Of a stretch of DNA of 64,000 nucleotides, positions 7,931-11,722 are shown piece after piece. The position numbers and the translations under genes were made by a program. The notes beneath the pieces were generated by a model. The model ran no database searches, had not been told where the DNA came from, and saw nothing but the letters and a program-made list of their open reading frames with translations. The first letter of the stretch is position 1. Each line of letters starts with the position of its first letter. The stretch comes from Abditibacteriota bacterium (lineage in GTDB: Bacteria > Armatimonadota > UBA5829), in assembly GCA_017445025.1 (NCBI GenBank), contig JAFSVJ010000084.1, positions 980 to 64,979 on the forward strand, in the 5' to 3' direction.

Positions 7931-8152
7931 TTAGTTTCCGGGGTGAGGACCGGGTTGTGCGGGACCTGCTCCACCGCCGTCTATTGACCAACCTGCGGGA
8001 GGTTGAGCAACTGCACCTGTTGATGGCGGTAAACCCTCAGAGGTAGTAACGTCTTTCTTTGCACCGCTGCAAGCCCACCAAATAACACCAACAATAAGAA
8101 TACAAGCAACTATAATCCCTACTACAAGGGGAGTCGGTAAGTTTTTTTTCAT
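7931..8152 (-). CDS. Small single-TM Pro-rich partner of prepilin cassette A (WSIDG motif, paralog 3)
   Basis: MKKNLPTPLVVGII.. TM helix, PPAGWSIDGG; clear paralog of 11492-11722. Confidence 0.8.
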   Translation of the reverse strand: MKKNLPTPLVVGIIVACILIVGVIWWACSGAKKDVTTSEGLPPSTGAVAQPPAGWSIDGGGAGPAQPGPHPGN

Positions 8153-8229
8153 TTTTTCACCTTTATTCCATAAATTTTATATCAGTATAAAAAAAGGAGT
8201 TAGGAAACTCCTTTTTTTATGATTGCCAA

Positions 8230-9045
8230 TTACTTCCAGTAGTATTCGTAGTAAAGTTGTGGATTCCAGTATTCAGAGGTTTCACCCCAACTGTTGTTGC
8301 CTGAAGCGTCACATTTACCATAACCGGCACCTATTTTAGTATCGTCACCTAAACCGGTTGTTCTGTAAAGATCGTTTGGAACTAAAGCTCTATACATCTT
8401 TGCGTGACCGTCTAAGAAACCGGCGGGAGTTTTTCTGTTATGTCCCTTGTTAGAAACACCTCTGTAGTAGAAAAACTGCATTGATTCGATGATTGCAACG
8501 GATTCGCCCGGGTTTTCATATTCGGCAAGAGCTTCACCTTCTTTTCCCCAGTAGTCAGTTCCACCGGCCCAGAAGGGGTAAGGGCTTGGCCCACAGACAT
8601 AAGCACATGTCCAAAATGAATCACTGTAACCTTTGTTGCTGGGACATTTAAATACGCCGGGGTTCTTTCCGGTTCTTTTTCGAGCTTGATCATTATCGGT
8701 CCAGGTAATGTTATCTCCCTCTGCTAACCATTTGGCGTATGAACCGTTTCCTGCTACATAGTCATATAAACAACCTATACCGTTGGGACGACCGTCAGTT
8801 AAGTAGGCTGAAAAACATGCAAGATATGCACCTGAACCTTGTCCGTAGCATCTTGGTGTTGTTTCATCCCAGTCGTCCATGTAAAGTAATAATCCTGTGC
8901 AGATATTCTTTACATTGGACAAACAGTTGTTTCCTCTTGCTTTTTCTCTTGCTTGGGCGAATACGGGGAATAGAATTGCAGCAAGTATGGCAATAATGGC
9001 TATTACTACCAACAATTCTATTAAGGTAAAACCTTTCTTGAACAT
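8230..9045 (-). CDS. DUF1559-type prepilin with H-X9-DG motif (cassette A, complete and connected to the promoter)
   Basis: [35 protein letters not shown] class III signal peptide; C-terminal [20 protein letters not shown]. Confidence 0.95.
8987..9005 (-). repeat. Left inverted recombination site (TAATAGCCATTATTGCCAT) within prepilin A codons 14-20
   Basis: Exact reverse complement of 10627-10645; sits in imperfect dyad TGGTAGTAA-TAGCCA-TTATTGCCA. Confidence 0.8.
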
Positions 9046-9092
9046 TGTTAATGTTCCTCCTTTTTTTTATTTTAAATTGTTTTTTTTATAAA

Positions 9093-9378
9093 AACTTGGG
9101 TGTCCAAGTAATTACCATTATTATTATACCACAAATAAAACTTATTTGTCAAGGGGTAAAGTTGGTTTTTTTTAAACCGGAAAATATATTATGACAAAAT
9201 TTGTTTTTAAAAGTTTAACTTGGGCGTCCAAGTTATGACATTTATATTATACCACAAAACAAAACCATTTGTCAAGGCTTAAAACCACTTTTTTTAAAAA
9301 AATTAAAAAAAATTATTTTTTTTAGTTTCTGTTCTTTTTGAAACAGATTAATAATGTTTAAACTTAGACGTCCAAGTT
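9093..9378 (-). promoter_or_regulatory. Tandem sigma70 promoters with three palindromic operators
   Basis: TTGACA-18-(TGG)TATAAT at 9152-9123 and 9275-9246; operators near consensus AACTTGGACGTCCAAGTT at 9093-9110, 9217-9234, 9361-9378. Confidence 0.82.
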
Positions 9379-9451
9379 CAATTACAATATTAAAGACCAA
9401 TATAAAAAAAGTTTTGTTCCAAAGTTTAAAAAAATTTTTAATTATAGATTT

Positions 9452-10498
9452 TTAATAATCTATTTTAAACAATTCGTTTTTAATAATATCATCGCTTAAA
9501 TGTATATAATAATCCATGGCAACGGATTTTTGCTTATGACCACAGGCAAGGTCTATAATGGCAAAATTAACTTTATCTTGCAAAGCCATAACAAAAGCCC
9601 TTGATAAGAAGGTGTGTCTGCAACTGTGAGTTGAATGGTTCATACCTAATTTTTTTATATATGTATTTATGGCTGAAATTATGGATATACACTTTGCAGA
9701 ATTATAATCCATAAGTTTTGTGCTATCACCATAGTTGTTATTCAATAAATATTTAATAATATGTTTTATTTTTGGATGTATATAAACTTTTCTGATACTG
9801 CTTTCGGTTTTTCCGTCTCTTACAAACATATAATCTTCTTTTAAATGGACGTCTGCTCTTTTCATATTTAGGATTTCACTCACTCTGCAACCTGTATATA
9901 ATAATATTAATAATAATCTTGCATGTCTTTTGGCATATATATCACCCTTATTCAGTAAATCCCAAAGTTTCTCAATCTCTTCATAAGTAAATACACTTTG
10001 TTCTCTCTTCTTGGGGGTCTTTTGTCCTTTGCTTGATAAAAGGGAAACTATATTTTTGTCTATTATTTCATTTTTGAGAGCATATTCAAAAATCGTGTTG
10101 AGCACCATTTTGAACTGTAAAAATGTGGGTTTTGTATAGCCGGACAATTTCTCATTCAGATCCTTATATTTTATTGAATTGATTGGTGTGTTAAAAAGAC
10201 TCTCTAAGGTTTTGGCAGTTTTTCTGTATACAATCAAAGTGTTTTCCGGTATGTTGTTATTGACTTTTTCTTTATATATAATATTATAAATATCTTTAAG
10301 TGTTATATGTTTTTTATTCTTATTTCCCGCAATATAATTGTTTAAATAGTTTTCCGCTTCTGTTTTTGTGGCAAAACTGCCCAATAATTTTCTTTTCCTT
10401 TTATTATTATCTATATAAGAAGGGGTATAAACTAAATAGGGTTTATCTCTTCCGTCTTTAACTTTATAAACAGTCCCTTGATTTTGTCCCCGTTTCAT
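9452..10498 (-). CDS. Tyrosine recombinase/integrase (putative invertase)
   Basis: Catalytic set R (YTGCRVSE), K (DGKT), HxxR (HSCRHT), H (CGH), Y (DYYIH); phage-integrase-like N-terminus. Confidence 0.93.
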   Translation of the reverse strand: MKRGQNQGTVYKVKDGRDKPYLVYTPSYIDNNKRKRKLLGSFATKTEAENYLNNYIAGNKNKKHITLKDIYNIIYKEKVNNNIPENTLIVYRKTAKTLESLFNTPINSIKYKDLNEKLSGYTKPTFLQFKMVLNTIFEYALKNEIIDKNIVSLLSSKGQKTPKKREQSVFTYEEIEKLWDLLNKGDIYAKRHARLLLILLYTGCRVSEILNMKRADVHLKEDYMFVRDGKTESSIRKVYIHPKIKHIIKYLLNNNYGDSTKLMDYNSAKCISIISAINTYIKKLGMNHSTHSCRHTFLSRAFVMALQDKVNFAIIDLACGHKQKSVAMDYYIHLSDDIIKNELFKIDY

Positions 10499-10524
10499 AA
10501 TTTCCTCCCTGTGTTTTTCATAAT

Positions 10525-10553
10525 ATTATAACATAAATATATAATTTTTTCAA
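10525..10553 (-). promoter_or_regulatory. Promoter of the recombinase gene
   Basis: TTGAAA-17 bp-TATAAT with TG extension; GGGAGG RBS at ~10504-10509. Confidence 0.7.
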
Positions 10554-10626
10554 TTTTTAGTTATAGAGGAAAACAGGGTTGTCGTTATGTGGTCAACATT
10601 ATATAATTTTTAAATATAAATTATCA

Positions 10627-10645
10627 TAATAGCCATTATTGCCAT
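10627..10645 (+). repeat. Right inverted recombination site (TAATAGCCATTATTGCCAT)
   Basis: Exact inverted copy of 8987-9005; marks the start of homology to prepilin A. Confidence 0.8.
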
Positions 10646-11372
10646 CCTTGCTGCAATTCTATTCCCGGTTTTCGCCCAAGCAAGAGAAAAAGCAAGAGGA
10701 AGCAACTGTCTATCTAACGTAAAGAATATAACCACCGGTTTAATGCTTTACATGGATGACTGGGATGAAACAACACCAAGATGCTACGGACCTAACTCAG
10801 GTGCTACAGTAGCTACTTTCGGTGCCAAATTAAACGATGGTCGTCCTAACGGTATCGGTTGTTTGTTTGACTATGTTGCAGGTCAAAACGCCTACGCAAA
10901 CTGGTTAGCAAAGGCTAACACTCAAACTGGTAACAACGCCCCCGGTGTTTTCAGATGTATGAGTAACAAAACATACAGTGAAACATGGTGGACATGTGCT
11001 TACTTCTGTGGACCAAGCCCTTACCCCTTCTGGCCCGGTGGAACTGACCACTGGGGAAAAGAAGGAGAATCATTAGCTTCTTATGACAACCCCGGTGAAT
11101 CTGCTGCTATTATCGAATCAGCACAGTTCTTCTACTGGAGAGGAATTGCTAACAAGGGACACAACAAAAAGACTCCTGTTGGTTTCTTAGACGGTCACGT
11201 AAAGATGTACCAAGCTTTGACACCTAAAGAATTATACCGTGACAACAACCAAGGTTACGACTGGGTAATCAGTGCAGGTTTTGGTCCTTCCGACGCTGCC
11301 GGAACCAACAGCTGGGGTCAAACAAGCGAATATTGGAACCCACAAGTATTATACCACTACTACTGGAAATAA
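10629..11372 (+). CDS. Headless (silent) DUF1559 prepilin cassette B
   Basis: Open frame [27 protein letters not shown]...H-NKKTPVGFL-DG..YYWK*; in-frame TAA at 10617-10619; no start codon, RBS or G|FTLIE cleavage motif; otherwise uninterrupted. Confidence 0.9.
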   Translation: MAIIAILAAILFPVFAQAREKARGSNCLSNVKNITTGLMLYMDDWDETTPRCYGPNSGATVATFGAKLNDGRPNGIGCLFDYVAGQNAYANWLAKANTQTGNNAPGVFRCMSNKTYSETWWTCAYFCGPSPYPFWPGGTDHWGKEGESLASYDNPGESAAIIESAQFFYWRGIANKGHNKKTPVGFLDGHVKMYQALTPKELYRDNNQGYDWVISAGFGPSDAAGTNSWGQTSEYWNPQVLYHYYWK

Positions 11373-11491
11373 TATATAGTAAGAAAGGGGTTTAACAACT
11401 CCTTTCGTTCTTAATGATAATGTAATAAAAAATAGTTTTATGTTTTCATAAGACTATTTTTTATATAAAATCAAAGATAAAGGTGAAAAAA

Positions 11492-11722
11492 ATGAAGAAG
11501 AATTTACCATTACCTGTAGTTATAGGTGTTATAGTGGTTGTTCTCGTAATTGTAGGCGTAATATACGCTGTTGCAATTCGACCTAAAGACGCTGTCACTG
11601 ACGCAAACGGTTTACCCATAGGTGAAGTTCATCCGGCACCTGCAGGTTGGTCAATCGACGGTGGTGCTCCCGGACAACCCGGACCTCAAGGCCCCGGCGT
11701 TCCCCAAGGTGGCGCTCAATAA
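11492..11722 (+). CDS. Small single-TM Pro-rich partner of prepilin cassette B (WSIDG motif, paralog 4)
   Basis: AAGGTG RBS; MKKNLPLPVVIGVI.. TM helix; PAGWSIDGG. Confidence 0.8.
   Translation: MKKNLPLPVVIGVIVVVLVIVGVIYAVAIRPKDAVTDANGLPIGEVHPAPAGWSIDGGAPGQPGPQGPGVPQGGAQ

Follow-up and report, generated by a model that had tools for sequence, protein, structure and literature searches.

A recombinase-encoding invertible segment that very likely alternates two DUF1559-like prepilins in a ruminant-gut bacterium

Inversion alternates pilin-type proteins with a constant N-terminal part in the R64 shufflon (Rci, PilV) and in Moraxella (Piv); in both, it is the variable C-terminal segments that flip, and neither the promoter nor the constant N-terminal part moves. 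To our knowledge, Piv is not a tyrosine recombinase. At the sap locus of Campylobacter fetus, a promoter-bearing segment inverts between two opposed cassettes that have conserved 5' regions. This inversion is reported to be RecA-dependent, uses long 5' homology and leaves each cassette with its own start codon, and we know of no dedicated recombinase within the segment. Here we analyze a stretch of 64,000 nucleotides (nt), called the window below, from an Abditibacteriota bacterium of the Armatimonadota (assembly GCA_017445025.1, contig JAFSVJ010000084.1, positions 980 to 64,979). In it, two prepilin-type cassettes, A and B, point away from each other on either side of a 1621-nt segment (9006-10626; all positions are those of the window) that carries a tyrosine recombinase gene and all parts needed for cassette expression. 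Very likely, programmed inversion of this segment by the encoded recombinase alternates a leader-A with a leader-B prepilin. The switch itself is real and well formed, and both of its orientations occur in nature. Unlike in the R64-type shufflon, it is the constant 5' part that inverts here, and the variable bodies are fixed.

In layout, the locus resembles vsa of Mycoplasma pulmonis. As described in PMC2268961, inversions at vsa bring a promoter, a ribosome-binding site and 714 nt of 5' coding sequence before silent, 5'-truncated genes, and a tyrosine recombinase, HvsR, is encoded at the locus. Here, too, a promoter, a ribosome-binding site and a 5' coding part would be moved by inversion to a silent 5'-truncated gene. 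Compared with that description of vsa, 40 nt of coding sequence are moved rather than 714, there are two cassettes rather than many silent genes, the recombinase gene rides inside the invertible piece, and the targets are prepilin-type proteins rather than lipoproteins. Related loci have been treated as gene-altering programmed inversions, 'partial intergenic invertons' or shufflon-type loci (Milman et al. 2023, PMC9881135; Chanin et al., bioRxiv 10.1101/2023.03.11.532203). With gene-altering inversions as presented there, our locus has in common a gene opposed to a promoterless truncated paralog, inverted repeats in coding sequence and a nearby recombinase gene; most of those described swap 3' specificity domains, whereas here the promoter-bearing 5' end moves. 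The main text of PMC9881135 reports 'Pilin' as enriched among predicted inversion targets (odds ratio 8.4), and PilV is named in a table of that paper; DUF1559 and Planctomycet- have 0 occurrences each in the main text, the supplementary locus lists being outside this count. In the literature library searched, we found no published link between DUF1559/H-X9-DG proteins and inversion or phase variation, although the supplementary tables of the inverton surveys may list such loci. A first-pass annotation of the locus, made from the letters alone, had put it forward as a candidate for a new type of switch in this protein family. We likewise found no earlier inversion in the family, but a moving constant 5' part is already known from vsa, at least as the system is described in PMC2268961. 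By this analogy the locus would work like vsa, and the principle of the switch is already known; what appears to be new is the target family, the phylum and the compact, self-contained module.

Cassette A (9045->8230, minus strand) is complete and encodes 271 amino acids, as judged from the list of open reading frames (ORFs) together with the sequence. Its fixed body, from codon 21 to the stop (8230-8986, minus), is expressed in the window's orientation. Cassette B (10629-11372, plus), divergent from A and ~74% identical to it in amino-acid sequence, has 247 codons but no leader, ribosome-binding site or start codon, and is silent in this orientation; its frame is open from a TAA at 10617 through 11372 and reads IIIIAIIAIL..., with the first ATG only at 10743. 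The parts that B lacks lie in the segment between the cassettes. These are the constant 5' coding part with the prepilin leader and cleavage motif (9006-9045, minus; codons 1-13 and the first base of codon 14), the ribosome-binding site GGAGGAA (9054-9060, minus), promoter P1 (9123-9152, minus; TTGACA, 18 nt, TG-n-TATAAT) and promoter P2, a tandem copy of P1 (9246-9275, minus). P1 and P2 are both directed at the leader, each with 12/12 consensus positions and the TG of an extended -10 element, and they are conserved, as is the ribosome-binding site, in a metagenome contig (L012) discussed below. The recombinase gene (9452-10498, minus; 348 amino acids, with an arm-type DNA-binding N-terminus) has a promoter-like site of its own (10553-10525, minus; 11/12 positions, with TG), and its product has the complete catalytic set, R205, K230, H291, R294, H321 and Y331, assigned from motif positions and from an alignment with XerC-like 4a8e and Int 6en0. 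The first-pass annotation had described the complete A, the divergent, intact but headless B with its upstream TAA, and an intervening segment holding promoters, ribosome-binding site, leader codons and a full R-K-H-R-H-Y recombinase, and on each of these points it was correct.

As in programmed inversion, the segment is bordered by inverted repeats that lie within two paralogous coding sequences. The left arm (8828-9005, 178 nt) is 88% complementary to the right arm (10627-10804), and their innermost perfect blocks are 8987-9005 and 10627-10645. The A/B homology ends at 9005 and 10627; beyond the arms, weaker homology (71-79%) continues across the rest of the genes. The inverted 19-bp identity that had been noted at the start of this homology is exact, and exactly two copies of it, both here, are present in the 2.85-Mb genome (35% G+C, 122 contigs, 91.6% complete), with 9 further sites matching at two or fewer mismatches. 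It is, however, merely the innermost of six perfect blocks (19, 20, 31, 11, 11 and 34 nt, from the innermost outward), so that anatomy alone leaves the crossover point unfixed.

We picture the 1621-nt segment as a self-contained expression head between two fixed, opposed cassettes, which recombination within the inner part of the repeat would flip. In one orientation, that of the window, leader-A (271 amino acids) and the A-side small membrane protein would be made, and B would be left without promoter, start codon or leader; in the other, leader-B (261 amino acids) and the B-side small membrane protein would be made and A would be silent. The encoded recombinase is the probable catalyst, and the crossover probably falls within the innermost 19-40 nt. 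Switching may well be frequent and reversible within a clone, and the products are plausibly subunits of surface or envelope fibres, whose alternation would be selected by phage, host or substrate.

The flipped state can be found in public sequence. When 9006-10626 is inverted in silico, the resulting 261-residue ORF is identical to a database protein, P0124 (recorded from two contigs), and metagenome contig L012 contains the predicted 70-nt flipped junction with 0 mismatches. This contig (2718 nt) was found by scanning metagenome contigs with the recombinase, and its own recombinase is 87% identical to that of the window. Along it lie, in order, the recombinase, P2, P1, the ribosome-binding site, the leader fused in frame to a B-type cassette (262 amino acids) and a B-type partner gene; the part from recombinase to leader is collinear with the window's segment, and the ortholog of the B-side partner occupies 2409-2639, 3' of the cassette. 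L012 stops 38 nt before the other arm and covers the B|leader junction, not the A-side junction. For A, the in-silico inversion leaves a first Met-started ORF of 216 amino acids, which is the length of database protein P0132 (214/216 identical). Each outcome foreseen in the first-pass annotation, which had also proposed looking for the flipped state in related genomes, was thus encountered: the flipped state itself and the in-frame fusion of about 261 amino acids in P0124 and L012, the swap of downstream partner in the gene order of L012, and the silencing of A in leaderless A-type proteins that start at the first internal Met.

Those leaderless proteins come from clusters at 90% identity, in which both states can be seen side by side. 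With the reservation that the counts are biased, as gene callers and clustering handle truncated ORFs differently, the B-type cluster (8 members) contains six proteins with the leader (P0122, which is that of L012, P0001, P0123, P0124, P0126 and P0127) and two without it (the window's 209-residue ORF, P0121, and P0125); the A-type cluster (5 members) contains two with the leader (window A and P0133) and three without (P0131, P0132 and P0134, each of which begins with the internal Met of MDDWDE); and an A'-type cluster contains one of each (P0129 with, P0005 without). P0133, which has the leader, and P0131, which does not, are identical at 218/218 positions, and the body of P0124 is identical to window B at 247/247. 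Identical alleles in both states indicate that flips are fast relative to point substitution. Both orientations are therefore represented in natural DNA with in-frame products (the L012 junction, P0124 and the clusters), and each state is seen in several records that are independent and of different origin (NCBI, ENA, JGI). The case also shows that the two states of a switch can be recognized from public protein clusters alone.

Some observations weigh against programmed inversion by the encoded recombinase, and we give them in this and the next two paragraphs, each beside the alternative that it touches. All evidence for the two states is a comparison of separate assemblies of unknown mutual relation. 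Twenty sequencing runs matched the window, all of them as Logan contigs of animal gut metagenomes (best share of words 0.52), and four of these, X1-X4, were compared with 7800-12000 at 93% likeness. Among the joints listed for these four runs, whose Logan contigs are shallow (depth ~4-7) and fragmentary, there is no flipped joint 9005/10627, which counts neither for nor against switching. The contigs break near 9005/9007 and 10643/10645, where depth is piled up; these breaks are uninformative, because the pile-up comes from paralogs in the repeated leader region. The same breaks and excess depth around 9005 and 10645, together with the ~90 paralogs that share the leader region, could be taken to mean that both states are assembly artefacts, mis-joins across this highly repeated stretch. 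We consider that highly improbable: within the genome, the 19-mer occurs nowhere but in the two arms, the arms share no perfect block longer than 34 nt, each state appears in several independent records (NCBI, ENA, JGI), and mis-joins would not regularly yield in-frame fusions at the same base.

The ratio of nonsynonymous to synonymous substitution rates (dN/dS, Nei-Gojobori estimates) is 0.27 for the silent B of the window against the expressed B of L012 (dS 0.205), 0.22 for A against B (dS 0.862), 0.12 for the recombinases of window and L012 (dS 0.537) and 0.19 for their B-side partners (dS 0.684). By these estimates B is under purifying selection and is not decaying; decay of B in related strains had been named beforehand as one of the findings that would speak against a switch. 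The figures bear directly on whether B might be a 5'-truncated pseudogene, left by the insertion of an integrase element or by a single old rearrangement, with no programmed switching at all. B does lack its start codon, ribosome-binding site and leader, and the invertible segment is low in G+C (24-31%, vs 41-47% in the cassettes). Moreover, the recombinase was not found, at E <= 1e-10, in 60 related genomes, among which were two congeneric ones (96% and 84% complete) and another 25 from the same family. The C-terminal part of the cassettes was not found in the two same-genus genomes, where the DNA-level match is only to the conserved prepilin 5' region, and neither it nor the recombinase was found in the species collection. 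These absences and the low G+C content of the segment indicate that the module is young or acquired. As a pseudogene, however, B would hardly be open over 247 codons with a dN/dS of 0.27 against its expressed ortholog, nor would the same allele occur fused to the leader in P0124 (247/247) just as the in-silico flip produces it, or identical A alleles occur with and without a leader (P0133/P0131, 218/218). An insertion would in addition give direct, not inverted, repeats, with the displaced leader beside the element. We give this explanation very little weight.

What drives the inversion is a closer question. The recombinase scores 52.7 bits against Phage_integrase (PF00589; cut-off 27.1) and also matches Arm-DNA-bind_4. 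The named Xer and invertase equivalogs of NCBIfam (XerA, XerC, XerD, XerS, FimB/E-type) stay below their cut-offs, the best being XerA at 69 bits vs 220, as does the NCBIfam model for tyrosine-type DNA invertases (25 bits vs 221). In its arm-binding domain and in its best viral family (phrog_1 integrase, 2.9e-50), the protein resembles a mobile-element integrase. The gene is single-copy in the genome, and a word-indexed search of 5.8 billion proteins returned only 7 relatives at E <= 1e-10. These comprise the four members of the cluster to which the query belongs, P0139 (73% identical) and five proteins with no more than 33% identity. Two distant relatives, L013 and L014 (34% and 28% identical), are both on contigs without prepilin ORFs (2/2). 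It is thus conceivable that the switch is real but driven by RecA-type homologous recombination between the 178-nt arms, the phage-integrase-type recombinase with its arm-binding domain being a mobile-element passenger; inversion at the sap locus of C. fetus is reported to depend on RecA. The longest perfect blocks, of 31 and 34 nt, lie deeper in the arms than the 19-nt block. Database alleles are mosaic at residues 39, 49 and 53, and the arm of L012 has A-type bases at 2/21 diagnostic sites. Such exchange inside the arms indicates that homologous recombination between them also occurs, and it could alone cause inversions. On the other side, the arms are just 88% alike and their perfect blocks are short, there is no further mobile-element gene in the 1.6-kb segment (as judged from the ORF list), and the recombinase has been retained inside the segment in three lineages, with a dN/dS of 0.12; lineages at 100%, 87% and 73% recombinase identity all retain the design as a whole. 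L012 also has B-type bases at 19/21 diagnostic sites, among them the first beyond the 19-nt block, which fits a crossover in that block. The geometry of the inverted repeats, the position of the recombinase inside the segment, purifying selection and the diagnostic bases of L012 favour site-specific recombination within the inner 19-40 nt, and we regard inversion by homologous recombination with a passenger recombinase as unlikely.

The third of these lineages, represented by recombinase P0139 (73% identical), has the same design. P0139 and the A'-type protein P0005 are each on record from a 2235-nt contig, probably one shared contig. P0005 (A'-type) and P0125 (B-type) both start with MFVI directly before IAIIAIL. 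The same non-leader end abutting two cassette types is what would be expected if this lineage also flips.

Beyond A, A' and B, we observed further cassette types in the database (P0002, P0003, P0006 and P0130), which are 70-83% identical to the B-type cassette of L012 and 70-79% identical to A, and which have an identical leader and the same first ~38 residues. Across strains, the set of cassettes used at the locus seems to be larger; at least six types stand behind the identical leader (A, A' and B, and those represented by P0002, P0003 and P0006). The core of the repeat lies in the most conserved stretch of ~90 paralogs, and there are 9 near-19-mer sites; occasional capture of other paralogs might therefore occur. 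One could go further and see the module as a domesticated phage-type integrase that serves as a roaming expression head, occasionally capturing other paralogs and generating population-wide antigenic variation of DUF1559-like prepilins. This is a doubtful extension of the model, which, if true, would make the roaming head an antigenic-variation system for otherwise unexplained DUF1559-like prepilin families.

As to the class of the switched proteins, A has a cleavage/methylation motif (G|FTLIE) followed by a hydrophobic helix, as in prepilins, and its leader scores above the cut-offs of N_methyl (PF07963; 34 bits vs 21.2) and TIGR02532 (36.4 vs 16.3); B acquires the motif only upon inversion (as in P0124). 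When a profile of the cassette family was compared with solved pilins, the match was confined to approximately residues 3-60. The first-pass annotation had called the cassettes DUF1559/H-X9-DG prepilins. The H-X9-DG motif is indeed present near the C-terminus, with H202 and D212-G213 invariant or nearly so in alignments, and PF07596 (DUF1559) is listed in the precomputed annotation of database protein P0001 (93% identical). The PF07596 scores of the cassettes themselves, 19.6 bits for A and 21.1 bits for B, do not reach the gathering cut-off of 23.3, and the NCBIfam H-X9-DG models gave them no score at E <= 0.01. As the PF07596 scores are borderline, we name the cassettes DUF1559-like.

In Planctomycetota, Verrucomicrobiota, Armatimonadota and relatives, the paralog families of DUF1559/H-X9-DG prepilins are very large. 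A six-frame scan of the 2.85-Mb genome gave 93 matches to the prepilin hydrophobic core, 90 of which have an in-frame leader according to the leader pattern. Of the three that the pattern misses, one is B, another lies at the edge of a contig and the third has a variant leader (FSLMELL), which makes B the only internal leaderless prepilin among the 93, and it adjoins the sole copy of the recombinase gene. A tblastn search of the genome for such genes gave 194 segments. We also note that ~90 prepilin-type genes with near-identical leader and core are an unusually large share of the coding capacity of a genome of this size. A dedicated on/off swap acting on one pair suggests that the products are subject to an agent of selection that fluctuates; phage, host immunity and substrate are examples. 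The locus further offers a concrete handle on the family, in the form of two alternative alleles and a matching small membrane partner for each, and a compact 1.6-kb inversion module (recombinase, promoters and signal exon) from a phylum with almost no genetics.

On the 3' side, the two cassettes are followed by the same arrangement of a hairpin, a small gene and a terminator-like hairpin. The partner gene of A (7931-8152, minus; an ORF of 73 amino acids) lies before the terminator-like hairpin that ends the A-side transcription unit (7778-7806, minus; a 12-pair stem and a T run). The partner of B (11492-11722, plus; 76 amino acids from its ATG, the start in the ORF list being a GTG at 11483) lies before the corresponding hairpin of the B-side unit (11734-11758, plus). 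Both partner proteins have an N-terminal membrane helix, a GWSIDGG motif and a Pro/Gly-rich tail, and their scores exceed the cut-off of no Pfam or NCBIfam family.

These two genes belong to a set of four small paralogs (6927-7232, 7239-7583, 7931-8152 on the minus strand and 11492-11722) whose products combine a membrane helix with a Pro/Gly-rich tail and likewise fall in no Pfam or NCBIfam family. GWSIDG occurs in three of the four, and all three genome-wide matches to GW[ST][IVL]DG (3/3) are at this locus; the paralog at 6927-7232 contains tandem PMMPG repeats. Scans of the locus for Rfam families and transfer RNAs gave nothing above threshold and no transfer RNA. About 650 nt past the B-side terminator begins a run of plus-strand ORFs (12424-25715), the first of which (12424-13533) encodes a group-1 glycosyltransferase.

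Within the invertible segment, palindromes of the form AACTTGG.C..CCAAGTT (~16-18 nt) follow P1 (9094-9109) and P2 (9214-9234), and a third (9358-9378) is absent from L012. The palindrome could be the operator of a regulator or a 5' hairpin of the mRNA. A similar unit of promoter and palindrome is present at C87:21221, upstream of an unrelated gene whose product has a hydrophobic, signal-like N-terminus.

A second inverted pair, perfect over 60 nt (7858-7917 / 11856-11915), brackets the whole locus. We considered it as an alternative inversion site and rejected it, since more than 20 near-identical copies of this repeat are dispersed over the contigs. More than 20 contigs, C82, C95 and C103 among them, share its 51-nt core in identical or almost identical form, and the repeat contains a hairpin (CCCGAAAAGTT...AACTTTTTGGG) and resembles intergenic repeats of the repetitive extragenic palindromic (REP) or miniature inverted-repeat transposable element (MITE) type.

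The host is an uncultured ruminant-gut bacterium that resembles Armatimonadota/Abditibacteriota; among named sequences, its PEPCK is closest to proteins labelled 'Abditibacteriota bacterium' (76%) and 'Armatimonadota bacterium' (67-68%). Pieces from run X1 are identical to the window, and those from X2 and X3, both from bovine gut, are 93-99% alike. Logan contigs have loose ends at 9062, 9855, 10299 and 10625; the four that were tested are absent from the genome even with 2 mismatches, and they most likely come from other organisms. Finally, a 990-nt contig of run X2 joins the 3' end of A to 49 nt of the B-side intergenic region on the opposite strand, with joints at 8236|11423 and 7957|11471, which suggests that the regions downstream of both cassettes also exchange between arms in some strains.

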